From assembly GCF_026805325.1 (NCBI RefSeq), contig NZ_JAPRAT010000028.1, forward strand, positions 2,249 through 34,248: a stretch of DNA of 32,000 nt, in the 5' to 3' direction. Of this stretch, positions 4,487-28,414 are shown piece by piece. This DNA is from Natronobacillus azotifigens (lineage in GTDB: Bacteria > Bacillota > Bacilli > Bacillales > Amphibacillaceae). Position numbers and translations under genes: made by a program. Position 1 is the first letter of the stretch; every line of letters starts with the position of its first letter. Under the pieces are notes generated by a model, which worked only from the letters and a program-made list of their open reading frames with translations, was not told where the DNA came from and did not search any database.

Positions 4487-4666
4487 TTTATCCCGGAGCA
4501 ATCGTTCGTAAGACTCCCACTTCAAAACACCGAGAATATCAAGTGGTTTACGTGAGAGTAACGGACGCTAACACCCCCAAGGTTTTAAGGGCCTTTAGGT
4601 CATCTTTTAGAACTAACAATCGTGGGGGAATACCAAAAACCCTCACTGATTGAAGTTTCACTTTAT
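4487..4666 (+). repeat. intergenic repeat, copy A (full length, 180 nt)
   Basis: Strand convention for this family: + means the strand on which the element reads TTTATCCCGGAGCAA ... CTGATTGAAGTTTCACTTTAT.
Copy A aligns collinearly with the reverse complement of copy F (28232..28414). By hand alignment the two are roughly 85-90% identical.
Hairpin 1 is CAATCGTGGGGG (4617-4628) paired with CCCTCACTGATTG (4640-4652). TTTAT sits at both ends (4487-4491 and 4662-4666).
The copy lies in the divergent prfC / SNF2 intergenic region. Confidence 0.9.
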
Positions 4667-4768
4667 ATAGATAAGCTGAAAGTATATACACGTTACTGAA
4701 AATAGCATAGTTTTTTTAATAAAGTCAACTATTATTTCTATCTATACTCGTTTGTTTCGCTATTTCTT

Positions 4769-4777
4769 TGTTATAAT
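4769..4777 (+). promoter_or_regulatory. candidate extended -10 promoter for the SNF2 gene
   Basis: TGTTATAAT (TGnTATAAT) lies 36 nt upstream of the ATG at 4813. There is no good -35. Confidence 0.35.
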
Positions 4778-4812
4778 GAGCGGATAGACTTTTTTTATTT
4801 AAGGAGAACATC

Positions 4813-7800
4813 ATGCGCGCTATTTTTTTAGAACAACAAGATATTATTAAAATTACTGGGCAACGTTTTTACAAAAGAGGTTATGAGTATTTTAAAAAAG
4901 GAAGAATACATGGGCTTAACTATAATCCAATGATCGATTCTTGGAGTGCTCAAGTTCGTGGTGCACAAAACTATCAGGTGCGTGTCTTCTTTTTCGAAAA
5001 CGAAGAATTAGAAGCAAAGTGTAATTGCCCCGCATATGAAACGCACTACACTTGTAAGCACATTGCAGCGGTCTTACTGTCGATTACTCAGCAAAGTCAA
5101 CGGCATGACAAACAAGATCGTTATAAAACAAAACAAGCGGAAAAGCAAACGGCTTCAATGAGTGATCCTTTTCCTTTGCGGATGATCGAAGCCTTTGAAA
5201 CCATTCATACGCCTCAAAACCAAAGTACAAATTTTTTACAAGTCGATTATATGTTGTCTTTAAAGAAAGGTATATCAAGCAACCAATCCATGCTTACGGT
5301 AGAGTTAAAGGTTGGTGAACATCAACTCTATATTATTAAAGATATTCGTGATTTTTTAATTGTCGTCCAAAACGAACAACTTTTTGATGTTACAAAAAAA
5401 TTCACCTACGATCCAAGGAAACATGTATTTTCAGAAGATGATCAACAGCTGTTAAACAACCTATTTGAGGCGCAGCAACAAGAGTCGATCTATGCTAGTG
5501 ATTATTATGAACACGATAAAAGATCGCTATGCCTTCCAGCTTATTTAGTAGACTCATTCCTTAATACTATTGGCAACTTACCACACTCCCTAACAACCGA
5601 AACAGGTGAGGTGTTAACTGAGATCAAACGACATGACCAAATACCAAAATTGGTTTTCCCTGTTGAAATGGAAAGCGAACAAACTTTTTTAATCGATTTT
5701 TCTGATTTATTTATTTATCGATATTTAACGAACTATGGTTATTTGTTAAAAGAAAATAATTTTTATAAATTATCGACAGAACAACGAACCATTATTGATC
5801 AATTATATCGACTTCTTCCTTACCGGAATAAACAATCGCACCGAATTACAAATGAGACAATGGGAACATTCACTTCACATGTTATCCCTGTTTTAGAAAA
5901 AATCGGTAAAATTCATTATTCAATGGAAGCAGAAAGAAAGATACTATCTTTTCCTTTGGAAACAAAGATTTATTTTGAAGAAAAGAAAAATGCATTGTCT
6001 GCCACTATCACTTTTGATTATGGACCATATCAGTTCTTAGCCTTTCAAAAGAAATCAAACAATGATGCCGTAATCAAACGTGATGCCATAAAAGAGACTA
6101 GAATTATTAACTTACTTGAGCAAGCAGGTTTTCATTATCTTAACCAACATTTTCAACTGTTTAATCATGCTCAAATTTATCAATTTCTCCATGAAGGATT
6201 AGAGGAATTAGAAAACCATGCTACAATTTTTCTGTCCGATCAAGTGGAAAACTTGCTTTCAGATAATGAACCAATCTTAGAAACAAACATTGGTGTAAAC
6301 AAAACAACAGGTATGCTTGATATTTCTTTTGATATGGAAGGAATATCAGGCCAAGAAGTACAAGCTGTATTGCAAGCATTAGTGGAAAAGAAACAATATT
6401 ATCGTGTCACGGACGGGCCATTATTGAAATTAGATGACGAATCCTTTCTTTCCTTCCAAGCCTTTGCTGAAACGTTGCAATTAAAGAAGAAAGACCTGAC
6501 TAACTCACAGATAGAACTAAGCGCTGCACGTAGTTTTCAAGTGGAAGATAGTTTTTCACCAGAAGTTGCCCGTTACCAAACGACATTTAATCATTTATTA
6601 ACCAATTTAACGCATCCTCAAGATACCACTGTAAACGTTCCTTCTACGTTAAAAGCTACGTTACGTGATTATCAAACAACAGGATTCTATTGGTTAAAGT
6701 CGCTTTCTAGATATAAACTCGGTGGAATTTTGGCTGATGAGATGGGGCTTGGTAAAACCATACAAACTATTTCCTTTTTACTAAGTGAACAAGAGGAAAA
6801 AGGAACAGAACACTATCAAGCAATGGTGATCGCACCAGCATCACTTGTATATAACTGGAAAAAAGAAATAGAAAAGTTTGCTCCCTCACTCACCACCAAA
6901 ATTATCATAGGAACAAAATCGGAACGTGAAAAGCAAATACAAGCAGATAAACAAGTGAATATTTTCATTACTTCATACCCACTAATTCGTAAAGACATTG
7001 AACTGTATGAAAGCTATGAATTTGATGCACTAATTTTGGATGAGGCACAGGCCATAAAGAACCATTTGACGTTAACTGCGAGAGCCACTAGACTTATTCA
7101 AGCCAAACAACGCTTTGCCTTAAGTGGAACGCCAATTGAAAATGGACTTGAGGAATTATGGTCTATTTTTCAAACGATCTCACCAGGCTTTCTAAGTACA
7201 AAAAGACACTTCTTATCACTAAACATAGATTACGTAAAAAGAATAACTCGCCCATTTATTTTACGACGTTTAAAAGAAGAGGTTTTGTCTGAACTACCAG
7301 CCAAAATAGAAACAGAACAATATGCAGAGTTAACCAAACAGCAAAAAGAAGTCTATCTCGCATATTTAGAGAAAATGCAAACAAGTTTAGCTGAGACGAT
7401 TGATTCGAACGAGTTTAATAAAAGAAAATTAGAGGTCCTAGCGGGTTTAACACGATTGCGGCAAATATGTTGCCATCCTTCATTGTTTCTAGAAAACTAC
7501 GAGGGGCAATCAGGGAAATTAGAACATTTACAATCATTAGTTACCGAGTTAAGAGCAAACGGAAAACGGCCACTAATCTTTTCACAGTTTTCAAGTATGT
7601 TGAAGATCATCCACGACAGATTAGCTTCTGAAGGACACAAACTCTTTTATTTAGACGGTTCTACTCCTTCACAAGAAAGAGTGGAAATGGCTGATGCCTT
7701 TAATGATGGTGAAAAAGATATCTTTCTCATTTCATTAAAAGCCGGGGGTACAGGACTAAATTTAACTGGAGCTGATACAGTAATTTTGTATGACTTATGG

Positions 7801-8025
7801 TGGAATCCTGCTGTTGAGGCACAAGCAGCTGGTAGAGCACATCGGATCGGCCAAAAAAATGTTGTTCAAGTGATTCGATTAATTACTACAGGTACAATTG
7901 AAGAAAAAATCTATCAACTTCAAGCCAAAAAGCGGGAACTTGTTGATCAAGTGATTCAACCAGGAGAAACGATGCTTACTTCCCTGACAAAAGATGAATT
8001 ACAAGAATTACTAGCGATACAGTAA
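4813..8025 (+). CDS. SWIM zinc-finger / SNF2-family helicase (YwqA/RapA-like)
   Basis: The 1070-aa ORF has the SD AAGGAGAA 5 nt upstream of its start.
- N-terminal SWIM motif CNCPAYETHYTCKH (CxC-x8-CxH, nt 5020-5061)
- A long middle domain
- SNF2 ATPase motifs LADEMGLGKT (I), LILDEAQAIKN (II), SGTPIEN (III)
- Helicase C motifs LKAGGTGLNLTGADTVILYDLWWNPAVEAQAAGRAHRIGQ. Confidence 0.9.
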   Translation: MRAIFLEQQDIIKITGQRFYKRGYEYFKKGRIHGLNYNPMIDSWSAQVRGAQNYQVRVFFFENEELEAKCNCPAYETHYTCKHIAAVLLSITQQSQRHDKQDRYKTKQAEKQTASMSDPFPLRMIEAFETIHTPQNQSTNFLQVDYMLSLKKGISSNQSMLTVELKVGEHQLYIIKDIRDFLIVVQNEQLFDVTKKFTYDPRKHVFSEDDQQLLNNLFEAQQQESIYASDYYEHDKRSLCLPAYLVDSFLNTIGNLPHSLTTETGEVLTEIKRHDQIPKLVFPVEMESEQTFLIDFSDLFIYRYLTNYGYLLKENNFYKLSTEQRTIIDQLYRLLPYRNKQSHRITNETMGTFTSHVIPVLEKIGKIHYSMEAERKILSFPLETKIYFEEKKNALSATITFDYGPYQFLAFQKKSNNDAVIKRDAIKETRIINLLEQAGFHYLNQHFQLFNHAQIYQFLHEGLEELENHATIFLSDQVENLLSDNEPILETNIGVNKTTGMLDISFDMEGISGQEVQAVLQALVEKKQYYRVTDGPLLKLDDESFLSFQAFAETLQLKKKDLTNSQIELSAARSFQVEDSFSPEVARYQTTFNHLLTNLTHPQDTTVNVPSTLKATLRDYQTTGFYWLKSLSRYKLGGILADEMGLGKTIQTISFLLSEQEEKGTEHYQAMVIAPASLVYNWKKEIEKFAPSLTTKIIIGTKSEREKQIQADKQVNIFITSYPLIRKDIELYESYEFDALILDEAQAIKNHLTLTARATRLIQAKQRFALSGTPIENGLEELWSIFQTISPGFLSTKRHFLSLNIDYVKRITRPFILRRLKEEVLSELPAKIETEQYAELTKQQKEVYLAYLEKMQTSLAETIDSNEFNKRKLEVLAGLTRLRQICCHPSLFLENYEGQSGKLEHLQSLVTELRANGKRPLIFSQFSSMLKIIHDRLASEGHKLFYLDGSTPSQERVEMADAFNDGEKDIFLISLKAGGTGLNLTGADTVILYDLWWNPAVEAQAAGRAHRIGQKNVVQVIRLITTGTIEEKIYQLQAKKRELVDQVIQPGETMLTSLTKDELQELLAIQ

Positions 8026-8057
8026 CAAAAAAATATGCAAAACTTACTTCAAGAGGC

Positions 8058-8110
8058 AAAAAAAGAACCCAACCATATTTCCGGGGAAATAAAATGGTTG
8101 GGTTCTTTTT
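8058..8110. terminator. bidirectional rho-independent terminator (SNF2 gene / floT convergent pair)
   Basis: The stem GAACCCAACCA (8065-8075) pairs with TGGTTGGGTTC (8095-8105). It is flanked by an A-run on the left and a T-run on the right, so there is a U tract in both orientations. The right arm overlaps the floT stop codon. Confidence 0.8.
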
Positions 8111-9629
8111 ATTCTTGTTCTTCTTCGGCAACATGCTCTGCTTCTCGGTCAGTCTCTTCGGTATTCGATGTATTTTCTGGTACACTTAATTCGAACTTAT
8201 CGTCACTTTTTTTCGAAAGGTTATTCAATATTTCACTCAAATCAATTCCAGTCATTTGAGATAGACTTTCCTGTAACTTCACCATCGTACCTGTAACTCC
8301 ATCAGACAAACTTCGAACTCCATTACCATTTCCGCTTCCTCCACCATCTATAATTCGTATGGATTCAACATTAGCTAACGGTTCTGATACTGCTCTCGCA
8401 AACTCTGGTAGCATATTGATAATCATTTCGGACATCATTACTTCTTCATTCTTCGCTAATGCTTCTGCTCGTCGTTCGATTGCTTCTATTTCTGCTATGC
8501 TGGTCTGTCTAATTACCTCTGCTTCCGCTTGCCCTGCTTTTTTCTTTGCTTCTGCTTCTGCCTCTGCCTTCTTGATTTGTTCATAATATTCGGCATCTGC
8601 TTTTTCTTTTCGAACCTTTGCTTCTTCTTGCTCCAGTTTTACATTTCTTTCTCTTTCCATTTGCATTAACCGTAATTCTTCTTCCTTATTTTGACTAATT
8701 ACTTTTAGTCGTTCTTTTTCCACCTCTAGTTCTCGTTCTGCTTGCTCTAATGCATAAGCTGCTTCTGTTTTCGCTCTTGCTCTTTCTGTCTCTTCTTTGA
8801 ACATCGCATCTTTTAATTCTTTTTCTTTCCGCGCTTCAGCGATTGAAACTTCTCGTTCATACTCTTCCTTTTTCGTTTCTTCGTTCATCTTTGCACTATG
8901 CACTTTCGTATCTCTCGTATTACTAGCTTCTGCCATGTCTGCTACACGTTTTACTTCTGCTGCACGTTTACGACCCAAATTGACCAGGTACTGACTGCCA
9001 TCAGCATCCCTTATATCGGTTAAACCTAAACTAGTAATCTTAAAGCCCATATCATCTAATTGTTGCTGAGCAATATCCCTCACTTCTGTATTAAAACTTT
9101 CTCGATCATTATTAATTTGTTCTACGGTCATTTTTGATAAAATTGCTCGTAAATTAGAACCCAATACTCCTGCAACATCTGCTTCAATATCTTTTTGTTT
9201 ACGTCCGAGGAATTGTTCGGCATATTTAGCTGTTCCTTGTAAATTATCTGCTACCTTTAACATTGCAATAGCATCAGCTTCAATTGGCACACCTTCTAAT
9301 GTATATACTTTTGGTGTCGTAATGTCTAACTGAAAAGCGTTTAAGGAAACCTTCTCCGAACTTTGAAAAAGTTTAAGCCGATGTCCGCCACCACGGATAA
9401 TCTTCATGTACCGTCCTTCATTATCTTTGAAAATGCTCGGATCTCTTTCTGGATCACCCAACTTTGGCCCTGTTACGATCAATGCTTCATTTGAAGAAAC
9501 TGTTTTATATCTTATTTTCATATAAATAAACCAAACAACTGAACCTATAATTGTAAAAATAATTGCTACTATTAAAAAAACAATGCCACCAAGAAAACCT
9601 AATAACTCACTCACGTACACACGCTCCAT
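8109..9629 (-). CDS. floT: flotillin-like SPFH/band-7 protein
   Basis: The 506-aa ORF starts with a hydrophobic hairpin (LLGFLGGIVFLIVAIIFTIIGSVVWFIY). An SPFH domain follows, then a long Ala/Glu/Lys-rich coiled region. The length and architecture match B. subtilis FloT (YuaG).
The start is uncertain. ATG 9629 has no spaced SD. The in-frame GTG at 9614 has GGAG 9 nt upstream. Confidence 0.85.
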   Translation of the reverse strand: MERVYVSELLGFLGGIVFLIVAIIFTIIGSVVWFIYMKIRYKTVSSNEALIVTGPKLGDPERDPSIFKDNEGRYMKIIRGGGHRLKLFQSSEKVSLNAFQLDITTPKVYTLEGVPIEADAIAMLKVADNLQGTAKYAEQFLGRKQKDIEADVAGVLGSNLRAILSKMTVEQINNDRESFNTEVRDIAQQQLDDMGFKITSLGLTDIRDADGSQYLVNLGRKRAAEVKRVADMAEASNTRDTKVHSAKMNEETKKEEYEREVSIAEARKEKELKDAMFKEETERARAKTEAAYALEQAERELEVEKERLKVISQNKEEELRLMQMERERNVKLEQEEAKVRKEKADAEYYEQIKKAEAEAEAKKKAGQAEAEVIRQTSIAEIEAIERRAEALAKNEEVMMSEMIINMLPEFARAVSEPLANVESIRIIDGGGSGNGNGVRSLSDGVTGTMVKLQESLSQMTGIDLSEILNNLSKKSDDKFELSVPENTSNTEETDREAEHVAEEEQE

Positions 9630-9662
9630 TCCTGTTGTTTTACTACAACGAAGATCAATCTA

Positions 9663-9771
9663 TTTATCCCCGAGTAACGGACGCTATCACCCCGAAGGCT
9701 TCAAGGGCCTTTAGGGCTAACAATTAGTGAGGAAATACCTAACTCCCCCACTGATTGAAGTTTCACTTTAT
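9663..9771 (+). repeat. intergenic repeat, copy B (internally deleted, 109 nt)
   Basis: The sequence is TTTATCCCCGAG|TAACGGACGCTATCACCCCGAAGGCTTCAAGGGCCTTTAG|GGCTAACAATTAGTGAGG...CCCCACTGATTGAAGTTTCACTTTAT.
Both ends and hairpin 1 are present. The whole left arm and loop of hairpin 2, plus a 12-nt segment, are missing relative to copies A and F.
The copy lies between the minJ stop and the floT start. Confidence 0.88.
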
Positions 9772-9894
9772 CATTGTATGATTACAATTAGTTTTTATTT
9801 CTATTTTCAGATACTTTCATCACAATATTAGGACAGGCTCACAAAAGAACAATGACAACAAATCTAGGTTTAAAGAACACAGGAAAAGTTGTTT

Positions 9895-11079
9895 CTAAGA
9901 TGCATCGGAGGAGTCAAATGTTGGATCACAAGCAAAAATAATACCTAATTCATGATGATCTCCTTGATAAAGCGCTCGTTGTGCAAAACGTAGTTCACCA
10001 CGCTCATCAATAATATCCAATTTACAAAATGCACTATTCATTTGTAATGCTTGATAAAATTCGGATTGTTCTTCTATTTTTTCTCCGTTCACTTTGACAA
10101 TCGTTTCTCCAATTAGTAACCCAAGATCTTCAGCTGGTGAACCAGGTATAATAGCCAATATTTTTAGACCTTGAGAATTTGGACTGAACAAAATTCCTCT
10201 CGCTTGATCTTTTAGCTTCCATCGATAAGATAACCATTCCCTACCAATTAAAGCGACTACTACACTAACTATTGTAAATACACCCATGAAATAGCCGGAT
10301 ATAGAAAAGCCAATCACCAAAAACCCTAGTATGAATAAGGACTGACTAAAAGCCTTAGCTGCTTTAACAGGTAAAGATCCTCGAATTACGTGTTCAAACC
10401 CAATAATAATTGGGAAGAACAATATTCCATATGTATTCTCACCAAACTCGATAACTGGCCACCATTCAGCAAAAGGAGTGATTAATCCAGCAGGAATAAG
10501 CGTTCCAAATGGAAGAAGAGCAATCTTTTTGATTCGATGCTGACCAACCCACTTCCCGCGCTTACTTTTCATTATTTCAGGAAAAGTTTGATCTTGTCCT
10601 ACTTTTAATAAAATAACAGCTTCAAATAGCAAAAGAAGCCCCATTAATGTGGTAAAGGCAACCCATTGATAAACCGTAATATCTGATTGTAGTAGCTCTG
10701 GTAAATAATCACGATAATATGGGAAGAACAACAATGCAATGGTGGTAAAACCAAATGTATATGCACTAGAAAGCCATGTGAATTTTTTATGAATAGAAAA
10801 TAATATCGTAAATAAAATAAGTCCTATAATCATGAGATTATGCAACACAACACCTAATAATAATGAAACAGCTATCAATCCCAGTCCAAATAGTAGAGAT
10901 AACAAACGTGTTCCATAGACTTCATCATATAAATCATAGATTTTGCTACCGAATTTTTTTCTTTCTTGCTTTATTCGACTAGTTGATGCAAAAAAAGTAA
11001 TGATAATAAACCAATAGAACAACGGATTTAGGAAAAACCTTCCTATTCCTTTTGCTAATTCAATTAGCCAATCTTCCAT
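9895..11079 (-). CDS. minJ: polytopic membrane protein with C-terminal PDZ domain, MinJ-like
   Basis: The track ORF is 9895..11106. I start it at ATG 11079, which has the SD GGAGGAG 7 nt upstream and gives MEDWLIELAKGIGRFFLNPLFYW. The protein has multiple TM segments and a PDZ-like region (ILAIIPGSPAEDLGLLIGETIVKVNGEKI). The minJ call rests on this architecture and on its position next to the ctpB-like gene, as in B. subtilis. Confidence 0.7.
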   Translation of the reverse strand: MEDWLIELAKGIGRFFLNPLFYWFIIITFFASTSRIKQERKKFGSKIYDLYDEVYGTRLLSLLFGLGLIAVSLLLGVVLHNLMIIGLILFTILFSIHKKFTWLSSAYTFGFTTIALLFFPYYRDYLPELLQSDITVYQWVAFTTLMGLLLLFEAVILLKVGQDQTFPEIMKSKRGKWVGQHRIKKIALLPFGTLIPAGLITPFAEWWPVIEFGENTYGILFFPIIIGFEHVIRGSLPVKAAKAFSQSLFILGFLVIGFSISGYFMGVFTIVSVVVALIGREWLSYRWKLKDQARGILFSPNSQGLKILAIIPGSPAEDLGLLIGETIVKVNGEKIEEQSEFYQALQMNSAFCKLDIIDERGELRFAQRALYQGDHHELGIIFACDPTFDSSDAS

Positions 11080-11216
11080 CTGTAAACTCCTCCAAACGCG
11101 ATTCAATTACCTATCCTGTAAAACAGGAGGGTTTATCGCAACTTAATTAAAAATAGTGCTATCTCCTATATTCTATTTATTTTTTTCTAATTCCTGCATA
11201 GTAAAGCTATTTAAGC

Positions 11217-11254
11217 AAAAATAATCCGCCCTTAAGCATGGGCGGATTATTTTT
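11217..11254 (-). terminator. rho-independent terminator after the ctpB-like gene
   Basis: An 11-bp stem ATAATCCGCCC (11221-11231) / GGGCGGATTAT (11240-11250) has an 8-nt loop. AAAA and TTTT flank it, so a U tract is available on the minus strand. Confidence 0.8.
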
Positions 11255-11319
11255 CATCCTGATATAACTAACCATCATAGGCACAGACAAAACCCTTAAT
11301 GATTGAAGTTCTATCTTAT
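11255..11319 (+). repeat. intergenic repeat, copy C (degenerate hairpin-1 module)
   Basis: The sequence TCATCCTGATATAACTAACCATCATAGGCACAGACAAAACCCTTAATGATTGAAGTTCTATCTTAT aligns with the last ~65 nt of copies A and F. The GATTGAAGTT core is intact, but hairpin pairing is only partly retained. Its terminal TTA (11316-11318) is the ctpB stop codon on the other strand. Confidence 0.6.
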
Positions 11320-12803: not shown

Positions 12804-12856
12804 AATATTCACCTCAATAATTTGTCCTATTCTTCTAGTGTATCATATTTATGTGG

Positions 12857-12895
12857 AAAAAAGGCATCACAACGTAGCGTGCGATGCCCTAAAAA
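12857..12895 (-). terminator. rho-independent terminator after the M23 peptidase gene
   Basis: On the minus strand GGCATCGCA...TGTGATGCC forms a 9-bp stem with one mismatch, followed by TTTTTTCC. Confidence 0.7.
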
Positions 12896-12927
12896 GAATA
12901 TATGCTTCTAGTTTCTTTCATAGTCTT

Positions 12928-17050: not shown

Positions 17051-17147
17051 TTTTAGTCACCTCTAATTACTTTTTTTAACCTTCTGGAGTATATCATTTT
17101 TCTACAATATCTAACAACCTGTTCACAGAAATAATTCGACAATTAAT

Positions 17148-17314
17148 TAAAACTTCAATCAATAGAGGGCAGGATCTTTTCCGCTGATAATTAGCCCTAA
17201 AGGATGATCTAAAGATTCTTGAAGCTGTTAGGAACTTCCTTCTGATACTCCCATTGAACTAGCTTTTATATTTTTGTTTTTTAGGTAGGAGTCTTACAAA
17301 CTGTTGCTCTGAGA
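17148..17314 (-). repeat. intergenic repeat, copy D (full-length but strongly diverged)
   Basis: The plus strand reads TAAAACTTCAATCAATAGAGGG...CCGCTGATAATTAGCCCTAAAGGATGATCTAAAG...ACTCCCATTGAAC...GGTAGGAGTCTTACAAACTGTTGCTCTGAGA. This is collinear with copy F, with conserved blocks CTTCAATCA, TTAGCCCTAAAGGATGA, ACTCCCA and GGAGTCTTAC..GTTGCTC. Both stems are largely eroded, and the boundaries are approximate. Confidence 0.65.
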
Positions 17315-17470
17315 CTAGTTCATAAATTAGTAGTGATCTCGGGGCTTTTGGTTCTGTTATGGTAATAGAGAATTTGAAGTTCGTAATATAGGAATTTGCG
17401 TGCATTCTTCGCGATTTACAGGCGGCTTTTCGAATTTAGATGCTACTTTTCGAACCCACTTGCGATCATC

Positions 17471-17518
17471 AAAATAAAAAAGCATTTCGCTGTTCAAATC
17501 AAACAACAAAATGCTTTT
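17471..17518 (-). terminator. rho-independent terminator after prfB
   Basis: The minus strand reads AAAGCATTTTGTTG..(loop)..CAGCGAAATGCTTTTTTATTTT. This is an ~11-bp stem including G.U pairs, followed by a strong U tract. It starts 7 nt after the prfB stop. Confidence 0.65.
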
Positions 17519-17524
17519 AAAACT

Positions 17525-18626
17525 TTAATTCATTTGTTCACGTAAGTATGCATTGATGAAAGGATCTAAATCCCCATCCAGTACAGATTGTGTATTGCCT
17601 GTTTCTACATTTGTACGATGATCTTTTACCATAGAATAAGGGTGGAAAACGTAAGAACGAATCTGACTTCCCCAACCAATTTCTTTTTGTTCACCACGAA
17701 TTTCACTAATCTCTGCTTGTTGCTTCTCAATCTCCAATTGATAAAGCTTAGCTTTTAACATCTTCATTGCTTGTTCTCGGTTTTTGATTTGCGAACGCTC
17801 AGACTGGCAGGTTACAACCGTGTTCGTAGGTACATGAGTAATTCGAACAGCTGAATCAGTCGTGTTTACATGCTGACCACCCGCACCACTAGCACGATAC
17901 GTGTCAATTTTTAGATCTTCTGTATTAACCTCGATATCGATGTCATCGTCTAATTCGGGCATGACTTCACACGAAGCAAAAGAAGTGTGTCTTCTTCCGG
18001 ATGAATCAAATGGAGAGATTCGAACAAGACGGTGAACTCCTTTTTCAGCTTTTAAATAACCATAAGCATTATGCCCTGTAATCAATAGTGTAACACTTTT
18101 CACACCTGCTTCTTCCCCTGGTAAATAATCAAGTGTTTCCACTTTAAAATTCTTTCGTTCTGCCCAACGTGTATACATTCGAAGCAGCATACTAGCCCAG
18201 TCTTGTGATTCGGTTCCCCCTGCACCTGGATGAAGCTCCAATATTGCGTTACTCTTATCATAAGGTTCACTAAGAAGAATAAATAATTCGAACTCATTCA
18301 AAGCTTTTGTTAAAGGAATTAATTCATCTTCTAACTCTTGTCTAAGATCCTCATCCGCTTCTTCCTTGACCAACTCATAAGAAACTTCCAGATTTTCAAG
18401 ACTCTCCACATGCTTATCAAAAGTTTGGACTAGTTCTTTAAGGGCATTAGCCTCGTTTATAACCTTCTGTGCCGCTTGTTGATCATTCCAGAATTCAGGG
18501 TCACTCATTTCCGCTTCTAATTCAGCGATACGCGTTCGCTTTTCTTCTAAGTCAAAGAGACCCCCTAAAGTCTGTTAATTTTGTTGCCATTTTCTCAAGT
18601 TCTTGCTTTATTTCTGCTAATTCCAA
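17525..18626 (-). CDS. prfB: peptide chain release factor 2 (RF2), expressed via programmed +1 frameshift
   Basis: The track ORF 17525..18508 carries the RF2-specific SPF (RISPFDS) and GGQ (SGAGGQHVN) motifs.
ORF0 starts at TTG 18626 with the SD GAGGTGAAG. It reads [24 protein letters not shown] and then hits the in-frame TGA at 18554-18552.
A shift to +1 at CTT TGA C joins it to [21 protein letters not shown].... Confidence 0.93.
18551..18566 (-). promoter_or_regulatory. prfB +1 frameshift (recoding) site
   Basis: The minus strand reads AGG GGG TCT CTT TGA C. This is an internal SD-like AGGGGG three nt upstream of the slippery CTT, followed by the TGA C stop. It is the textbook RF2 autoregulatory signal. 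Confidence 0.92.
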
Positions 18627-18712: not shown

Positions 18713-18722
18713 TGTTCAATGA

Positions 18723-21230: not shown

Positions 21231-21712
21231 AATATACGCTCCTCTATTTAGTAAAAATGGCTAACAATACATGCTGTTAATCTACCCCTTATCATAACAC
21301 TAGCATATGGCAAAAACAAGAATGTTTCTCTAGTGATAAATTAAGCTACGAAAGGGTACAATACAATGATTAGTGCACATGATTTCATAGTTTGTACTAC
21401 TCATCATCATTTTTTAAAAAAATCAACTGGTATGAAATACATATAGTCCAAAATTGCCTTCAATACGTTATAATCGTTGCTTTTGCAAGGCTCCTACCTC
21501 TGGTTGCCAATACCGTTTTACATTTGGATGATTCAGTTGCTTTATTACTTGTCTAGCAGATTCTGCTCTATCTCTTAGGGAGCCACCATGATACTATAGC
21601 AAGATGGGAATTCATTTTTATCAACTAATTCAGCGATTCGAATACCATCGTTAACTATTGCATCTTAGTAGCTAAGTCAGCAAATCAAACATTGAAAATG
21701 TTTCTGATGAAA

Positions 21713-22336: not shown

Positions 22337-22911
22337 ATAACTGCACCCCTTTTTTTATTCTAGTATGGGAAAACACTTACCATCATGCTGGTAAGTATAG
22401 TTTTTTTCTTCGAGATTTGTACACCTTTTTTTTGGTTTTCTTTATGGTACTTTCTATGTTACGTAAATCTTTTAAATCAGTAACCAGTGTTTCAAAGAGT
22501 TAATATCATGGTCTTGCAACTGAATAGAATGCATCCATTAAGTGAACCCGCTAAAACTTGATCTCCAATCATTTTACACGCTATGGTGAATTTTTCAACA
22601 ATTATTATATCCGTGAGAATATGGAAGTAATTTCAATCCAGAAGACTGGTCGCTATTCCTCCACAAATATTCGTTGTACCATGCGAGATGTTAGTTCCCA
22701 ACATTCTAATTATAGAATTTCCCCTCGTATACAACATTGTTTAAAATGTTTTCAAAAATGGGAGAGTGCTAGTATAACACAACTTACTGGGGCACAACCA
22801 GCTAATGGAGTTTCTGTTAACCTTGCTCGCTAATTCACCATTTTATCTACTCAGACGAGCAAAAAAAACTCTCGGTTCGCTCTTTATACTCACACATTGA
22901 TTATATAATTT

Positions 22912-22941
22912 GAGCCTGCTTCCCAAAAGGGAAACAGGCTC
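22912..22941 (-). terminator. stem-loop downstream of xylB (possible terminator, no clear U tract)
   Basis: A 13-bp stem GAGCCTGCTTCCC / GGGAAACAGGCTC has one mismatch and an AAAA loop. It lies 80 nt after the xylB stop, and the flanks are A/T mixed rather than a U run. Confidence 0.45.
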
Positions 22942-23021
22942 ATCAAAGGCATATTTATATAATCATTCGTTTATCAGATCCAGCTTTTCCTTATCAAAAA
23001 GGAAATACAAATTAGACGATT

Positions 23022-24518
23022 TTATCGGAAGGACATTAAGTTTTGGTTTAGCTCTTTCGTTTGTTGATAAACTTGACGATACAGCTGATACAATGATTGA
23101 TATTTTTTCACATGATCTGGAATTGGTTCGTATACATCTGCCTCCATTAAAAAATGATCTGCACATGCTTGTAGTGTCGAGAACCAACCGCAACCAAGGG
23201 CTGCCAACATTGCTGCTCCCATTCCTGGTCCTTGTTCACTTTTCAGTCGAACAATTTTTGCATTAAAAATGTCTGCTTGCATTTGTAACCAAACCGGATT
23301 TTTTGCTCCACCACCAATGGAATAAACAGTATCAATCTGTTTACCTTTTTCACGAAATATTTCAATGGATTCTTGAAGCGAAAAGGTTATTCCTTCTAAA
23401 ACCGCACGCGTGAAATCGACTAGTCGATGAGTCGTGTCCATTCCAATAAAACTAGCCCGAATCGTCGCATCGGCATGTGGTGTTCGTTCACCAACAAGGT
23501 ATGGCGTGAATAACAACCCGTTTGCACCAATAGGGACAGAAGCTATATCAGCTAACAATGCTTCAAACGATAAACCTGACGCAAAAGTATCTCTAAACCA
23601 CGAAAGACTATGACCTGCTGATAATGTCACACCCATTGCGTAATATGCATCCTTCTCGCCATGATTGAAGTAATGCACTTTCCCCTCATAATCTTTTTCT
23701 CCACTCGGTTCATAAGATAACACAACACCCGAAGTTCCAATGCTGGCAAACGTTTTCCCCTCTGATAAGATGCCTGACCCAATTGCACCACAAGCATTAT
23801 CTGCTCCACCCGCAAACACTTTTGTCTTGCTAGACAATCCGATGCTAGCTGCTAACTCAGGAATGATTGTTCCTACTTTCTCACTTGATTCAACTAATGG
23901 AGGACAAAGTGATTGTGGAATATCAACTGTAGCACAAATCTCCGCACTCCAATCTTTAGCCGCTACATCCAATAAACCAGTTCCGGCGGCATCAGAATAA
24001 TCCATAGCTAACTGTTTGGTCAGACGATAACGTAAATAATCTTTTGGTAATAAAAACGTTGTAGCTTTAGCAAAAAGGTCTGGTTCATTTTCTTTTACCC
24101 AAATGATTTTTGGTAGAGTGAATCCCTCTAATGCCAAATTTTTCGTTATTTCGATATAACGTTCTTTACCTACTTTTTGATAGATTGTCTCGCATTGTTT
24201 AGTAGTTCTCGTATCGTTCCATAAAATCGCTGGACGAAGTGGAGTATTTGTTTGATCCAATAAAACCAAACCGTGCATTTGTCCAGAGAAGCTAATTCCT
24301 TCTATTAATGTAATCTCTCCATCAAATCGCTTGGTTAATTCTTTCATAGCTAATATGGTCTGGGTAAACCATTGCTCTGGTTCTTGTTCGCTATATCCAG
24401 CTTTTGGTTGCAATAATGGATAATCTTTGGCTTCTTGATCCACTACCTCACCGTTCTCGTTTACCAGTAACACCTTTACCGCACTGGTACCTAAGTCAAC
24501 ACCCATTACATACTTCAT
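23022..24518 (-). CDS. xylB: xylulokinase (FGGY carbohydrate kinase)
   Basis: The track ORF is 23022..24557. I start it at ATG 24518 (MKYVMGVDLGTSAVKVLLVNENGE), with the SD GGAAGAGGTG 5 nt upstream. FGGY N- and C-terminal motifs are present (GGGAKNPVWLQMQADIFN). It lies directly downstream of xylA. Confidence 0.9.
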   Translation of the reverse strand: MKYVMGVDLGTSAVKVLLVNENGEVVDQEAKDYPLLQPKAGYSEQEPEQWFTQTILAMKELTKRFDGEITLIEGISFSGQMHGLVLLDQTNTPLRPAILWNDTRTTKQCETIYQKVGKERYIEITKNLALEGFTLPKIIWVKENEPDLFAKATTFLLPKDYLRYRLTKQLAMDYSDAAGTGLLDVAAKDWSAEICATVDIPQSLCPPLVESSEKVGTIIPELAASIGLSSKTKVFAGGADNACGAIGSGILSEGKTFASIGTSGVVLSYEPSGEKDYEGKVHYFNHGEKDAYYAMGVTLSAGHSLSWFRDTFASGLSFEALLADIASVPIGANGLLFTPYLVGERTPHADATIRASFIGMDTTHRLVDFTRAVLEGITFSLQESIEIFREKGKQIDTVYSIGGGAKNPVWLQMQADIFNAKIVRLKSEQGPGMGAAMLAALGCGWFSTLQACADHFLMEADVYEPIPDHVKKYQSLYQLYRQVYQQTKELNQNLMSFR

Positions 24519-24635
24519 CTGTACACCTCTTCCTAAGAGAAAAATCGCTTCGTCCATTGCTTTGCGGTTCCATTATAGTTTTCCAAAAAAAGCTCAACAT
24601 ACCGACTCTTTTACATTACCCTTAATGAATAAGGG

Positions 24636-24689
24636 GAAATTCAATCAGTGAGGTTTTTATCCTCCCCACTGATTGAAGTTTCACTTTAT
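24636..24689 (+). repeat. intergenic repeat, copy E (hairpin-1 module only)
   Basis: The sequence is CAATCAGTGAGG (24642-24653) TTTTTAT CCTCCCCACTGATTG (24661-24675) AAGTTTCACTTTAT. The last 20 nt before the final T are identical to copies A, B and F. TTA at 24686-24688 is the xylA stop codon on the other strand. Weak similarity may extend left to about 24608. Confidence 0.85.
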
Positions 24690-26011
24690 TGATTTGCAAT
24701 TGCTTTAAATAAGTACTGGTTAATAGTTGCTTTAATAACTTCTAATCGGCCAGACTGATGTTTAATTTCCCCTAACGATAATGCGTGTGCTTCTAATTTT
24801 TTAAAATCTGTTGCTCCATTCACTATATCCAAGCCGATTCCCTCACTAAATGTATGGTAACGGTCTGCTAGTATGGACTCAAATACTTGATCATCAATCA
24901 TTTTTTGCGCTACCTTATACCCGATAGCAAAGCTGTCCATTCCAGCAATATGTGCATGGAATAAATCTTCTGCTTCAAAGGAACCTCTGCGCACTTTGGC
25001 ATCAAAATTTAAACCTCCTGAACCTAAACCACCATTTTTAATGATTTCATACATTGCTAGTACGGTAGAATATAAGTCTGTTGGAAACTCATCAGTATCC
25101 CAACCTAATAAAGGATCTCCTTGGTTTGCATCTACGGAACCTAACATACCATTTACTCGCGCATAGCGTAATTCATGTTCAAATGTATGACCAGCTAAAG
25201 TAGCGTGGTTCGCTTCAATGTTTAGCTTGAAGTGATCTTGCAATCCATAATTAAGTAAAAAAGCGTGGGTAGACTGACTATCAAAATCATATTGGTGCGT
25301 CGTTGGTTCTTTTGGTTTTGGCTCAATTAAAAACTGTGCATCAAAGTCAATTTCCCGCGCATAGTCTACTGCCATTTGGAAAAAACGCGCTAGATTGTCT
25401 TGTTCCAGTTTTAAATCCGTGTTTAACAAAGTTTCATAACCTTCACGTCCACCCCAAAACACATAATTTTCTCCACCTAATTCTTTCCCAATCTCCAATC
25501 CTTTTTTCACCTTAGCTGCAGCATAAGCAAAGACATCTGCATGATTAGAAGATGCCGCTCCATGAACAAATCGTGGGTGTGTAAAGTTATTCGCAGTATT
25601 CCATAATAATTTCACACCACTATCTTTCATATAACCTTTTATCATTGAAACGATAGTGTCTAAATTTTTATATGATTCTCGCAGACTGTTTCCTTCTGGT
25701 GCAATGTCAACATCATGAAAACAAAAATACTTCACTCCCAGTTTTTCAAAAAATTCAAAAGCTGCTTCCACTCTTGCTTTTGCTTGATCCATTCCAGTCA
25801 AGTGATCCCAAGGTCGGATCGCCGTTCCTGCTCCAAATGGATCCGATAAATCCTGAGTTAACGTATGCCAATACGCAACACCGAATCGCAAAAACTCTTC
25901 CATTGTTTGACCATTGATTTTTTCCGTTGGATTATAAAATTTAAATGCCAAAGGATTCTTTGAGTCTATTCCTTCAAAATTAATTTGTTTAACGCTTTCA
26001 AAATAAGTCAT
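24686..26011 (-). CDS. xylA: xylose isomerase
   Basis: The 441-aa ORF has the SD AAGGGGG 8 nt upstream. Diagnostic blocks are [48 protein letters not shown] and GWDTDEFP. Confidence 0.96.
25986..26000 (-). promoter_or_regulatory. possible catabolite-responsive element (cre) inside the first codons of xylA
   Basis: The minus strand reads TGAAAGCGTTAAACA (codons 4-9 of xylA). The left half and centre match the cre consensus WTGNAANCGNWNNCW. The right-arm CA is displaced by 1 nt, so this is only a near match. Confidence 0.35.
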
Positions 26012-26060
26012 TAAAATAACCCCCTTCTAATTTAGCAAGCATTTGCTTAGCTTTAATAAA

Positions 26061-26089
26061 ATTATAGCAAGTTAAACTTAGTTTGTCTA
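26061..26089 (-). promoter_or_regulatory. candidate sigma-A promoter of xylAB
   Basis: On the minus strand there is a -35 TAGACA (26089..26084), a 17-nt spacer, and a -10 TATAAT (26066..26061). This lies about 50 nt upstream of the xylA ATG. Confidence 0.6.
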
Positions 26090-26106
26090 GCGGACAAACT
26101 AAGTTT
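26074..26106. promoter_or_regulatory. xyl operator (XylR binding site)
   Basis: This is a perfect 14-bp inverted repeat, AAACTTAGTTTGTC tagcg GACAAACTAAGTTT. The arms contain TTAGTTTGT / ACAAACTAA, as in the B. subtilis/B. megaterium xylO as I recall it. It sits in the xylR-xylA divergent region and overlaps the -35 and spacer of the xylA promoter. Confidence 0.8.
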
Positions 26107-26175
26107 ATAGTAATCTTTTCTTTTTTATGTTACATTAATAGTAATTTAACCTGAACAAAAAAATAACGTCGAACG

Positions 26176-26246
26176 CAACCGTTAGTTCCCTTCCCACTTT
26201 AACAACTACTGAGGGGAATCTTATAAACGGTTTCCGTCAGATAACA
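26176..26246 (-). repeat. intergenic repeat, copy G (diverged hairpin-2 module, apex deleted)
   Basis: The plus strand reads CAACCGTTAGTTCCCTTCCCACTTTAACAACTACTGAGGGGAATCTTATAAACGGTTTCCGTCAGATAAC. It aligns with copy F at CGTCCGTTACTCCCACTTAAACAAC...GAAGTGGGAGTCTTACGGACGGTTGCTCCGGGATAAA. The right half matches about 21 of 36 positions by hand count. It ends at ATAAC, just before the xylR RBS. The boundaries are approximate. Confidence 0.5.
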
Positions 26247-26267
26247 AGGGAGAAAGAGTGAGTAATC

Positions 26268-27455
26268 GTGAATCAAACGTGGAATCAACAGATCATAAAA
26301 AAAGAAAACAAAATGCTTGTATTAGAAACTGTCAAAGCAAATACCCCTTTATCTCGAGCAAATGTTGCTCAACTTACCGGATTAAATAAAGGAACGGTAT
26401 CGTCGTTGGTAAGTGAACTTATTGAAGAGGATTTTATTCATGAATCTGGTCCTGGTGAGTCCAGTGGTGGTAGAAGGCCTGTCATGTTACTATTTAATCG
26501 TCGAGCTGGCTATACCCTTTCAATCGATTTAGGTGTTGGTTATATTTGGGGGTTGTTAACCGATTTAACTGGAGATATCGTTTTAGAAGAACGGATACAT
26601 TTCCAGAAAAAAGAATTCAATGCTGTTCTTCCTAAATTAATTGAGTTCATCACCAAACTTCATGCTGCTGCTCCAACAAGTACTTATGGAATTATCGGAA
26701 TTGGCATTGGAGTGCCTGGTGTAGTCAGCAAACAAGGAGAAGTTTTACTTGCCCCTAACCTTGACTGGAAAAGAATTCAATTGAAACAAGTATTAGAAAA
26801 TTATTTTTCTACCCCTGTAATCATTGAAAATGAAGCAAACGCAGGAGCTTATGGAGAAATGAAATTCGGTTCTGGCCAGACAGCTAATCACATGATTTAT
26901 GCAAGTATTGGAAATGGTATTGGGATGGGATTAATATTAAATGGAGAATTATATAGTGGTTTACATGGGTTCGCTGGGGAAATTGGTCATATGACGATTG
27001 ACAATGATGGGATCGCTTGTCGCTGTGGTAACGTCGGTTGCTGGGAAAGATATGCTTCTGAACAAGCATTAATCGAGAAAGCAATACAATTGGAAATCAT
27101 CTCCCCAAATGAACTTGCTCCATTTGATCGATTAATTGAGTATGCTAGTAACGGGGATCACTCAACCATTCATTTATTTGAGAACATTGCTGAATATATA
27201 GGAATGGGATTAACTAACTGTATCAATATCTTTAATCCTGAACTTGTTATTATTGGGAATCAATTTATTCGAGCGGAGCGGTGGATTCGCCCTGTCATCG
27301 AAAAATATATACAGAAGCATACGATTGGTTTTCATCAAGAAGAGCTAAAAATTCAGTTTGCAGAGCCTAAATTTCATTCTTCAGCAGTAGGAATGGCGGC
27401 ATTTACTATCGAGGCATTTTTTCACAATCAAAACCAATCCAATGGACATAACTAA
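26268..27455 (+). CDS. xylR: xylose repressor XylR (ROK family)
   Basis: The 395-aa ORF starts at GTG. It has an N-terminal wHTH (LSRANVAQLTGLNKGTVSSLVSELI) and SSGGRRPVMLLFN. ROK motifs are present (ENEANAGAYGE, and the zinc motif CRCGNVGCWERYAS). It is divergent from xylAB, with the operator between them. Confidence 0.9.
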   Translation: MNQTWNQQIIKKENKMLVLETVKANTPLSRANVAQLTGLNKGTVSSLVSELIEEDFIHESGPGESSGGRRPVMLLFNRRAGYTLSIDLGVGYIWGLLTDLTGDIVLEERIHFQKKEFNAVLPKLIEFITKLHAAAPTSTYGIIGIGIGVPGVVSKQGEVLLAPNLDWKRIQLKQVLENYFSTPVIIENEANAGAYGEMKFGSGQTANHMIYASIGNGIGMGLILNGELYSGLHGFAGEIGHMTIDNDGIACRCGNVGCWERYASEQALIEKAIQLEIISPNELAPFDRLIEYASNGDHSTIHLFENIAEYIGMGLTNCINIFNPELVIIGNQFIRAERWIRPVIEKYIQKHTIGFHQEELKIQFAEPKFHSSAVGMAAFTIEAFFHNQNQSNGHN

Positions 27456-27550
27456 AGCATGATCTCCTAGCATTGTTAGAAACATAATCCTTCCTTATAC
27501 GTAATAGTGGTATCAAATTTTTGTCTTAAGTAAAATGGTTCTTTATGCTA

Positions 27551-27585
27551 AGAGACCATCGCAAACTTGCATTGCGATGGTCTCT
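27551..27585. terminator. shared stem-loop terminator between convergent xylR and hpf
   Basis: A perfect 12-bp stem AGAGACCATCGC / GCGATGGTCTCT has an 11-nt loop. On the plus strand T-rich sequence follows (ATGTAAGATTATTTATTTTTT). The minus-strand tail is not U-rich. Confidence 0.65.
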
Positions 27586-27604
27586 ATGTAAGATTATTTA
27601 TTTT

Positions 27605-28150
27605 TTAATTCGGTTCAATTAAGGCATATTTTCCGTCATTTCTTCGGTAAACTACATTGGTATCTCCAGATTCTGCATTGGTAAATACAAAGAAGTTGTG
27701 ACCTAGCATATCCATTTGTAAAATTGCTTCCTCTGAATCCATTGGTTTTAGATCGAATCGTTTCGTACGAACAATTTCTAAACCATCTTCTTCGTCATAG
27801 TCTAATGTTTCATCTTCCATTTCAGCAAAAACATGTTTTGGAGCACCTTTTTGACGGATTCTTCGATTGATTTTGGTTTTATATTTTCTAATTTGTCGTT
27901 CTAACTTATCTACTACTAAATCAATTGCTGCATACAAATCTGTATGCTTTTCCTCCGCTCTTAGTAATAAGTTCGGCATTGGAATCGTAACCTCAATTTC
28001 TTGCTCTTCATTATAGACACTTAAATTCACATTGACATCTGACGTTGGAGGGGTGTCAAAATAACGTTCTAGCTTGCTAATCTTTTTCTCCACATACTCT
28101 TTTATTGCTCCTGTCACCTCAACGTTTTCACCTCTAATGTTATATTTCAT
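27605..28150 (-). CDS. hpf: ribosome hibernation promoting factor, long form (YvyD-type)
   Basis: The 181-aa ORF has the SD GAAAGGAGGA. Its N-terminal YfiA/S30AE domain opens MKYNIRGENVEVTGAIKEYVEKKISKLERYF. Its C-terminal dimerisation domain is EAILQMDMLGHNFFVFTNAESGDTNVVYRRNDGKYALIEP. Confidence 0.95.
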   Translation of the reverse strand: MKYNIRGENVEVTGAIKEYVEKKISKLERYFDTPPTSDVNVNLSVYNEEQEIEVTIPMPNLLLRAEEKHTDLYAAIDLVVDKLERQIRKYKTKINRRIRQKGAPKHVFAEMEDETLDYDEEDGLEIVRTKRFDLKPMDSEEAILQMDMLGHNFFVFTNAESGDTNVVYRRNDGKYALIEPN

Positions 28151-28184
28151 AAAAGTGTCCTCCTTTCTATATCTATAATACTTT

Positions 28185-28210
28185 ATACCCTTTTCTTAAT
28201 AGGAATAAAC
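28185..28210 (-). promoter_or_regulatory. SigB-type promoter of hpf
   Basis: The minus strand reads GTTTAT (28210..28205), a 14-nt spacer, then GGGTAT (28190..28185). The SigB consensus is GTTTAA-N12-15-GGGTAT. The -10 lies about 35 nt upstream of the hpf ATG. B. subtilis yvyD/hpf is known to have a SigB promoter. Confidence 0.7.
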
Positions 28211-28231
28211 CAAAAACAGAAAAATATTTTT

Positions 28232-28414
28232 ATAAAGTGAAACTTCAATCAGTGGGGGTTTTTAGGTATTCCCCCACTGATTGTTAGCCCTAAAGGATGA
28301 CCTAAAAGGCCTTTGAACCATTCGGGGTGCTAGCGTCCGTTACTCCCACTTAAACAACTTGTTTTTCTTGTTGTTTTGAAGTGGGAGTCTTACGGACGGT
28401 TGCTCCGGGATAAA
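28232..28414 (-). repeat. intergenic repeat, copy F (full length, best-preserved, 183 nt)
   Basis: Layout on the plus strand:
- ATAAAGTGAAACTT at the left end
- hairpin 1, a perfect 13-bp stem: CAATCAGTGGGGG (28246-28258) / CCCCCACTGATTG (28271-28283)
- a 50-nt linker containing AAAGGCCTTT
- hairpin 2: CGTCCGT-T-ACTCCCACTT-AAACAAC (28334-28358) pairing with GTTGTTT-(TG)-AAGTGGGAGT-(CTT)-ACGGACG (28370-28398), about 24 bp with bulges
- TTGCTCCGGGATAAA at the right end
It lies between the hpf promoter and the DUF4190 gene. Confidence 0.92.

Follow-up and report, generated by a model that had tools for sequence, protein, structure and literature searches.

A probable bcr1-type, MITE-like repeat subfamily in the core genome of Natronobacillus azotifigens

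The stretch of DNA analysed here comprises 32,000 nucleotides (nt) of the Natronobacillus azotifigens genome (contig NZ_JAPRAT010000028.1, positions 2,249 to 34,248; the window, in whose numbering positions are given). It carries uvrB, prfC, a Snf2 helicase gene, a floT-like gene, genes for a PDZ protein, the S41 protease Ctp and an M23 peptidase, ftsX, ftsE, a yitT-like gene, prfB, secA, xylB, xylA, xylR, hpf, fliS and fliD, and is a typical Bacillaceae core region. The host is a haloalkaliphile of soda lakes, far from the Bacillus cereus group. By exact look-up, every protein tested proved to be one of N. azotifigens, and the stretch also corresponds to positions 2344-34343 of contig JBNPWT010000025.1 (GCA_050433685.1). 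Interspersed among these genes is a family of short hairpin-forming repeats, represented by three full copies (A, D and F) and three partial copies (B, C and E), whose anatomy, relatives and possible means of movement are the subject of this report.

The family is marked by an exact 20-mer, CTGATTGAAGTTTCACTTTA, at positions 4646, 9751 and 24669 on the plus strand and 28233 on the minus strand. These four sites had been reported in an earlier reading of the window made without database searches (the sequence-only reading), and the match is exact at all four, with none expected in shuffled sequence. An unbiased repeat search of the window paired A with F, B with A, B with F, D with F and E with F. 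A profile hidden Markov model (HMM) was trained on copies A and F only and run over the window with nhmmer, and a covariance model (CM), which combines sequence and structure, was run on both strands with filters off. Copies A and F had been described as full-length, collinear and 85 to 90% identical; they are collinear with a measured identity of 88.0% (161/183), and reach CM scores of 138.9 bits (E=1.8e-29) and 169.8 bits (E=1.9e-36), respectively. Copy D is, as proposed, a full but heavily diverged copy, 68% identical to F, with E=3e-18 in nhmmer (17145-17314, minus strand) and E=2.4e-21 with the CM; its boundaries were reset to those in Table 1, as defined by the empty site of relatives (see below). 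The corresponding E values for copy B were 6.6e-26 (9646-9771) and 2e-13, while copy E gave ∼5e-5 on each strand with nhmmer and 1.4e-5 (plus) and 4.9e-5 (minus) with the CM. Copy C, with an nhmmer E value of 0.0056 (11255-11317), scored 40 bits with the CM (E=3.7e-7, 11209-11319). The 5' boundary of C was moved out to about 11225, and E was redrawn as 24628-24689.

Copy G, which had been put forward as a module consisting of the long hairpin only, does not survive formal alignment. Its E value was 0.53-0.56 with nhmmer (26180-26234, minus strand) and 1.3 with the CM (11 bits), and since the next chance matches reach 9.5 bits, it stands at the top of the noise. There is a local match of 15/16 nt, AGTTGTT(T/A)AAGTGGGA, to the long hairpin of F, whose score of 27 against a maximum of 25 among 498 window controls and 2000 shuffles is marginal. 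Copy G may be what remains of a long 5' hairpin, but its membership in the family is not established. Among the three weak copies that the sequence-only reading had proposed to weigh against controls, C and D stand clear of them and G does not. The CM scan of the window gave no family members beyond the copies listed in Table 1. The repeat family is therefore real, with A, B, D and F strongly supported, C and E moderately supported and G not supported. Both orientations occur, as had been stated (A on the plus strand, D and F on the minus strand), and the occupancy of seven in roughly 20 intergenic gaps becomes six confirmed copies (seven with the unsupported G) set against the 21 gene junctions of the window.

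Table 1. Copies of the repeat in the window and structural parts of copy F
Feature	Coordinates	Strand	Description or basis
Copy A	4487..4666	+	full-length, 180 nt, TTTAT at each end
Copy B	9663..9771	+	internally deleted derivative, 109 nt, keeps both TTTAT termini
Copy C	11225..11319	+	decayed, 5'-truncated: middle part, eroded 3' hairpin, tail
Copy D	17142..17326	-	full-length, diverged; TTTAT (17322-17326) and TTAAT (17142-17146)
Copy E	24628..24689	.	62-nt near-palindrome in the xylA-xylB spacer
Copy G (doubtful)	26176..26246	-	hairpin in the xylA-xylR divergent spacer
Copy F	28232..28414	-	best-preserved full-length copy, 183 nt, TTTAT at each end
Long 5' hairpin of F ('hairpin 2' of the sequence-only reading)	28334..28398	-	minimum free energy structure
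Small middle hairpin of F, GGCCTTTTAGGTCATCCTTTAGGGCT	28286..28311	-	fold
3' hairpin of F ('hairpin 1' of the sequence-only reading)	28246..28283	-	13-bp stem CAATCAGTGGGGG/CCCCCACTGATTG
Conserved 3' tail of F, AAGTTTCACTTTAT, closing in TTTAT	28232..28245	-	identical in A, B, E, F and L084

Copy A lies in the spacer from which prfC and the Snf2-helicase gene diverge; it is sense to the helicase gene, whose ATG follows 147 nt downstream. Copy D lies in sense in the spacer of prfB and the yitT-like gene, where its presence varies by strain, and copy F, also in sense, sits 82 nt upstream of the hpf start codon in the spacer that hpf shares with a divergent DUF4190 gene. A further full copy was found outside the window, at L084:10484-10656 (L numbers denote retrieved loci), and its ortholog in another sample lacks the 3' arm of the 3' hairpin. 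Copy B occupies the spacer of the PDZ-protein gene and the floT-like gene and is antisense to each. The earlier description of the copies as strictly intergenic holds with two exceptions: on the opposite strand, the terminal TTTAT of copy E includes the TAA that stops xylA (24686-24688), and the terminal CTTAT of copy C includes the one that stops the ctp S41 protease gene (11316-11318, minus strand).

The short copies derive from the long form by internal deletion, truncation or palindromisation and are not its building blocks, contrary to the separable modules that had been envisaged. Alignment to F shows that copy B has indeed lost the long 5' hairpin, by a deletion at TTTATCCC|GAGTAACGG that is accompanied by a shortened middle hairpin, but it keeps both termini and is not a module. 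Copies C and E do retain 3'-hairpin material, but the first is a decayed, truncated copy, and the second carries the last ∼27 nt of the element (3'-hairpin arm and tail) twice, in inverted arrangement around the loop TTTATCC, with a 26-mer that is 100% identical to F. This bears directly on a likeness to BOX, REP/BIME and MITE (miniature inverted-repeat transposable element) families that had been noted from the sequence. Palindromes of the REP/BIME/REPIN kind, which have a conserved head tetranucleotide, often form inverted pairs and are mobilised by RAYT transposases, or a modular boxA-B-C array of the pneumococcal BOX type would give intergenic, hairpin-forming repeats in both orientations with variable copy composition and possible effects on mRNA stability; copy E, an inverted doublet of the 3' hairpin, is superficially REPIN-like, and some metagenome copies carry extra linker hairpin modules (see below). 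However, the unit here is 155-185 nt long with defined and asymmetric termini (TTTATCCC… / …GTTTCACTTTAT) instead of a 20-40-nt palindrome, its short variants demonstrably arose by deletion or truncation and not by module shuffling, the window has no tandem or alternating BIME-like arrangement, and there is no sequence relationship to REP/BIME or BOX, the homology lying instead with the bcr1-type repeat discussed below. We consider this explanation, already disfavoured, to be highly improbable. A hairpin-based, MITE/REP-like interspersed intergenic repeat is what stands of the original likeness, while the modular build does not.

Full copies are about 175-185 nt long, start with TTTATCCCGG (TTTATCCCGGAGC) and end with GTTTCACTTTAT (GAAGTTTCACTTTAT); the 5' terminus reads TTTAT|CCCGG and the 3' tail closes with …GTTTCAC TTTAT. 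Copies A, B and F have the exact form TTTAT…TTTAT and copy D has TTTAT…TTAAT. On direct reading, the 5' end TTTATCCCGGAGC is not an inverted copy of the 3' end GTTTCACTTTAT, and the element has no terminal inverted repeats. From 5' to 3', it comprises a long imperfect hairpin, a linker with a small middle hairpin, the 3' hairpin and a single-stranded tail of about 15 nt. In copy F, the long hairpin is built from a lower stem CGTCCGT/ACGGACG, an AAGA bulge and an upper stem CTCCCACTT/AAGTGGGAG, and the whole copy folds as RNA with -74.4 kcal/mol (z=-8.5), a value equalled by 0 of 200 shuffles. Copy A has the same layout with a fold weakened by mutations (-44.4 kcal/mol, z=-1.8).

Rfam gave 0 matches at the gathering score in the window, and the sole match with an E value below 1 was a spurious miRNA on palindrome E (24.5 bits, where the gathering score is 66), so that neither level of search yielded a genuine family. 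A blastn search with copy F against plasmid records returned only B. cereus-group matches, limited to the 3' ∼60 nt. One of the matched records was a 5.5-Mb chromosome, that of Bacillus sp. N5-665 (L002), in which the element at L002:301-457 is 157 nt long, starts with TTTATCCCGC, ends with AAAGTTTCACTTTAT and folds as two independent stem-loops. Elements of this type, 154-157 bp long and flanked by TTTAT, occur in 52 Bacillus records and at 40 or more places in the N5-665 chromosome. The HMM trained on A and F matches L002 with E=1.4e-12 over HMM positions 18-183 (about 165), and an alignment of 13 sequences (six Natronobacillus copies, six from the B. cereus group and one from Niallia) is collinear from end to end. 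The small middle hairpin is a gap in all bcr1-type rows of this alignment (155-nt copies) and is shortened in copy B and L084, while the 3' tail is also common to the bcr1-type copies (…AAAGTTTCACTTTAT).

In PMC3184786, PMC6199540, PMC6542083 and PMC3446304, bcr1 is described as a MITE-like repeat of ∼155 bp with 5-bp TTTAT direct repeats, two stem-loops and many partial copies. The bcr1 or bcr repeats have been called specific to the B. cereus group until at least 2021 (PMC6199540, PMC8725734). We infer that the L002-type repeat is bcr1, as it fits every published descriptor, the identification being by features and not by consensus sequence. The repeats bcr1 to bcr3 are said to form Group A of the 'Bacillus cereus repeats' of Okstad et al. 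2004, Klevan et al. 2007 and Kristoffersen et al. 2011. The conserved 3' sequence was not found printed in the literature examined, in which the supplement of PMC6542083 holds copy counts only.

The Natronobacillus element shares with bcr1 the TTTAT at both ends, the 5' start TTTATCCCG, the 3' end …CACTGATT(G/A)AAGTTTCACTTTAT, the collinear order in which the long 5' hairpin is followed by a linker, the 3' hairpin and the tail, the intergenic location in both orientations, and perhaps a presence/absence polymorphism, seen here at copy D with one flank well conserved; the many partial copies published for bcr1 are matched here by the short derivatives B, C and E. It differs in its length of 175-185 nt compared to ∼155 nt, which is due to the additional hairpin of ∼25 nt in the linker, and in the stem of the long hairpin, which has been rewritten by compensatory changes. 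These repeats are, in all likelihood, a diverged bcr1-type, non-autonomous MITE-like subfamily in N. azotifigens. Since the hosts lie outside the B. cereus group, it is not bcr1 in the strict sense but part of a wider bcr1-like superfamily. The sequence-only reading could match the element to no named family, and that statement falls, given the homology over the whole length to a TTTAT-flanked repeat of ∼155 bp that fits bcr1; of the novelty claimed, the new host and the diverged subfamily hold, but what is described is the extension of a known family and not a new kind of element. Classical MITEs such as Correia/nemis and RUP are likewise small, non-coding and intergenic, with an AT-rich target and a short direct repeat at the ends, structured if transcribed and presumably moved in trans. 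The Natronobacillus element differs from them in having no terminal inverted repeats and no relative bearing an open reading frame (ORF) among the loci searched. We know of no related autonomous insertion sequence (IS) for this repeat.

Both hairpins have been kept by compensatory substitutions across genera. In the 13-sequence alignment, 88.9% of the cells are paired in the two-hairpin structure compared to 25-48% when the partners are slid by 1-3 columns. The covariation test that had been suggested for the aligned copies gave both-sided, compensatory changes at 11 pairs and a score of 0.351, against 0.06-0.12 for the slid structures and 0.22 for the shuffles, and none of 500 shuffles reached the observed value. 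Compared to the bcr1-type copies, compensatory changes were found at 7 of the 13 lower-stem pairs of the long hairpin, and three double substitutions turn the bcr1-type lower stem GGGCAGT/ACTGCCC into the CGTCCGT/ACGGACG of Natronobacillus. The 3' hairpin is the most sequence-conserved part of the superfamily, with nearly invariant columns and with helices 3 and 4 paired in 96% and 85%, respectively. Among 73 distinct metagenome copies, in a model-fitted alignment with a leaning towards the structure, 25 of 36 pairs are compensatory (14.8±2 in shuffles) and 88.6% of the cells are paired, with compensatory change at 11/11 lower-stem and 6/7 upper-stem pairs of the long hairpin. On the strand as written, G·T and A·C pairs, the latter being G·T pairs of the opposite strand, stand at 53:18. 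This excess is mild evidence that the written strand is the folding one, and only mild because the structure was derived from the same strand. Sequence is conserved in the 3' hairpin and the tail as well as in TTTAT and the TTTATCCC start (TTTATCC), and mainly shape in the long 5' hairpin. The superfamily consensus also has AYTAAC-N3-CAGT preceding the foot of each hairpin on the same strand.

Relatives of the element with the same termini were found well beyond the B. cereus group. Niallia tiangongensis carries one (L013:5875-6025), a Lysinibacillus sp. (L012) has two copies, a plasmid of Pseudalkalibacillus hwajinpoensis has relatives at three places, plasmids of Peribacillus asahii hold the 3' part only, and the Bacillus phage proCM3, a prophage, carries a further relative. 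The bcr1-type family therefore extends beyond the B. cereus group, and the published group specificity fails for the wider family. Among the 80 loci listed, the SecA nearest to that of the window is 78% identical (Pseudogracilibacillus), and no family member turned up in the 22-kb region around secA in about 30 other Bacillales, the closest relatives of Natronobacillus among them. This patchiness is what one would expect of a mobile element.

A 23-mer, CACTGATTGAAGTTTCACTTTAT, occurs in at least 120 metagenome contigs, from which the CM recovered 75 elements, most of them 150-165 nt long and close to the bcr1 type. TTTAT was present at both ends in about 36 of the 40 metagenome copies inspected. 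Longer copies of 210-260 nt (L135, L121, L179, L123, L174, L155 4645-4897, L145, L161 and L105) contain an extra linker hairpin module. There are at least two kinds of linker module, one of which (GGGCC…GGTCA…) resembles the middle hairpin of Natronobacillus, and the linker of L105 holds an GGGCCTTTAGGTCA module like the middle hairpin of copy F. Acquisition of modules seems to have its hot spot in the linker.

Contigs from sequencing runs of close relatives, retrieved through identical proteins, show that copy D is polymorphic. The prfB-yitT spacer measures 474-479 nt in the window and in L091, L093, L095 and L096 and 309 nt in L090 and L092, and the alignment gap at the D site is exactly the element. 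The filled site reads CTAATTTAT|GAACTAG…TTAATTAAT|TGTCGAA and the empty site CTAATTTAT|TGTCGAA, with a single TTTAT (L090:7194-7209 and L092:3870-3885). The secA gene of L090 is 98.5% identical to that of the window. This polymorphism is the same kind of evidence as that in the bcr1 literature. In a plasmid of B. thuringiensis YB6, a 3'-end fragment …GTTAAAGTTTCACTTTA adjoins a full bcr1-type 5' end, CCCCGCTATTTG…, through a shared TTTA (L101:57-75), an arrangement that could be either a head-to-tail junction or the result of one copy having inserted at an older copy's TTTAT.

Several points weigh against a mobile, bcr1-type element. The flanks of D are unequally conserved between the lineages (left 65.6% and right 96.8% identical), so that replacement by recombination or a precise deletion between the TTTAT repeats could account for the presence or absence of the element. 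Only one of the seven copies is polymorphic, every sampled relative carrying A, B, E and F, and D is the most diverged copy, which speaks against its recent insertion from a master resembling A or F. An ORF-bearing element with the same termini was not found when pairs of 5'-end and 3'-end HMM matches 270-6000 nt apart were sought in 120 metagenome loci, and no transposase lies beside the two 5'-end-only matches on plasmids of B. cytotoxicus and B. mycoides. Finally, the equation of the L002-type repeat with bcr1, probable as it is, is based on published features and not on a sequence comparison with the bcr1-bcr3 consensus. The end pairs that were considered as candidate autonomous elements all proved to be independent copies flanking ordinary genes (holA, rpsT and gpr). 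The spacer from prfB to D (17327-17524, compared to L090:6985-7200) is 65.6% identical although secA is 98.5% identical, and it holds a degenerate short tandem motif, …AAATTCGAAAAGCC…GTAAATCGCGAAGAATGC…GCAAATTCC….

If the element is mobile, the question of which enzyme moved it brings in a second explanation, which is a refinement of the bcr1-type assignment more than an exclusive rival. The element could have arisen and been mobilised by the single-strand 'peel and paste' route of HUH (Y1) transposases of the IS200/IS605 type, in the manner of palindrome-associated transposable elements (PATEs). Insertion would then occur 3' of TTTAT without duplication, the second TTTAT being the element's own right-end cleavage site. 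Like PATEs, the element lacks terminal inverted repeats, has a subterminal hairpin near each end (set in by ∼11-16 nt on the left and by ∼15 nt on the right) and a specific pentanucleotide at the left junction, with a single TTTAT in the empty site, and it shows strand-specific signs of structure in the G·T bias of 53:18. The same-strand AYTAAC-N3-CAGT before both hairpin feet and the L101 fragment abutting a 5' end through the shared TTTA also fit such a route. However, the shared AYTAAC-N3-CAGT goes only marginally beyond chance on a rough estimate, and the two hairpins differ from each other in sequence and size, whereas the two end hairpins of IS608 and ISDra2 are near-identical. Both orientations occur within 32 kb of one replichore (A on plus, D and F on minus), so that a strict lagging-strand bias is not evident, and neither tnpA nor tnpB with these ends, nor any other link to a Y1 transposase, was found among the loci examined. 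A target-site duplication and a non-duplicative insertion are indistinguishable from these sequences. We regard descent from, and movement by, an HUH transposase as unlikely on this evidence.

A host function was also considered, in which the copies are structured RNAs, either cis-regulatory elements of untranslated regions (UTRs) or small RNAs, multiplied by regulatory recruitment. The strongly conserved secondary structure with its covariation would be expected of such RNAs, each of the four full copies (A, D, F and L084) reads in sense with the gene downstream, and copy F lies in the likely leader of hpf, with a weak promoter-like site just upstream (28444-28415). About half of the bcr copies of B. 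cereus are transcribed and bcr3 correlates with a longer mRNA half-life, according to PMC3446304. In 12 of 42 elements with scorable neighbours, the 3' TTTAT, read as ATAAA on the coding strand, holds the TAA at which a converging gene stops, as in the metagenome loci L131, L148, L138, L171, L128 and L133, and a stop inside the terminal TTTAT means that a stable hairpin sits just after the stop codon. Stops inside TTTAT are probably due to a preference for TTTAT targets at gene ends. Against a host function, the adjoining genes are unrelated in function, positions lack conservation from genus to genus, closely related strains may or may not carry D, and many copies are decayed, such as A (z=-1.8), C and L085. 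The orientation relative to tandem genes, 16 sense and 9 antisense, is not significant, the scan for promoters and terminators found no consensus site inside the elements, and there is no Rfam family. We therefore think it quite improbable that the copies are maintained as host RNAs.

For the bcr1-type, MITE-like element that we favour, a mechanism can be outlined that is consistent with these results. The element would be moved in trans, now or recently, by an enzyme encoded elsewhere, which would recognise the conserved 3' hairpin and tail as sequence and the 5' hairpin as shape, probably on one strand. Insertion would take place at TTTAT, either duplicating it or landing next to it, and an excised circle would carry the junction …CACTTTAT|CCCGG. 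Effects on the host would be secondary, with co-transcribed copies placing stable hairpins in 5' or 3' UTRs; hairpins upstream of hpf or right after the xylA and ctp stop codons may alter mRNA stability or read-through. A broader proposal, that there is a Bacillaceae-wide superfamily of TTTAT-targeting two-hairpin elements, abundant in metagenomes, whose invariant 3' hairpin with tail and shape-conserved 5' hairpin are the cis sites of a trans-acting enzyme working on single-stranded DNA, is speculative, and we put it forward as a minor possibility.

Other features of the window were noted alongside the repeats. A strong sigma-70-like promoter (TAGACA, 17 nt, TG-TATAAT) lies at 26061-26089 on the minus strand before xylA, with copy G upstream of it, towards xylR. 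Two long spacers, 21231-21712 (482 nt) and 22337-23021 (685 nt), flank an unannotated 207-amino-acid gene between secA and xylB, and neither contains a repeat or an Rfam match. In L090 and L094, the first of these spacers, upstream of secA, differs by an additional ∼104 nt of unrelated sequence, which was considered as a candidate element and represents ordinary divergence. Upstream of the prfB ORF (17525-18508), the sequence AGGGGG TCT CTT TGA C at 18552-18575 (minus strand) is the classical programmed +1 frameshift site, which explains why the ORF lacks the first ∼30 codons. Short-read contigs of N. azotifigens-like genomes (L001, L084-L089 and L097, from Logan; SRR35198269, SRR31967943, SRR31968101, SRR31968102 and SRR31967948) start or stop 24-29 nt inside copies A, B, E and F, and the repeat therefore fragments these assemblies, while the diverged C, D and G are assembled through. 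The breaks were also considered as a sign of high copy number, and this was dropped, as the four near-identical copies of the window could suffice.

A diverged bcr1-type subfamily is thus dense in Natronobacillus, with six copies in 32 kb of core genome, and has relatives in at least four other Bacillaceae genera, a prophage and at least 120 metagenome contigs. In practical terms, these repeats break short-read assemblies of N. azotifigens and, in an appreciable share of cases, provide a neighbouring gene with its stop codon. Unlike a comparison confined to the B. cereus group, the one across genera tells conservation of sequence apart from conservation of shape alone, which points to the likely recognition sites of the mobilising enzyme and makes the search for it more tractable. 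If the proposal of a TTTAT-targeting superfamily were true, finding that enzyme would establish a transposition system, new or newly assigned, and a repeat that has been an orphan for 20 years would be explained.

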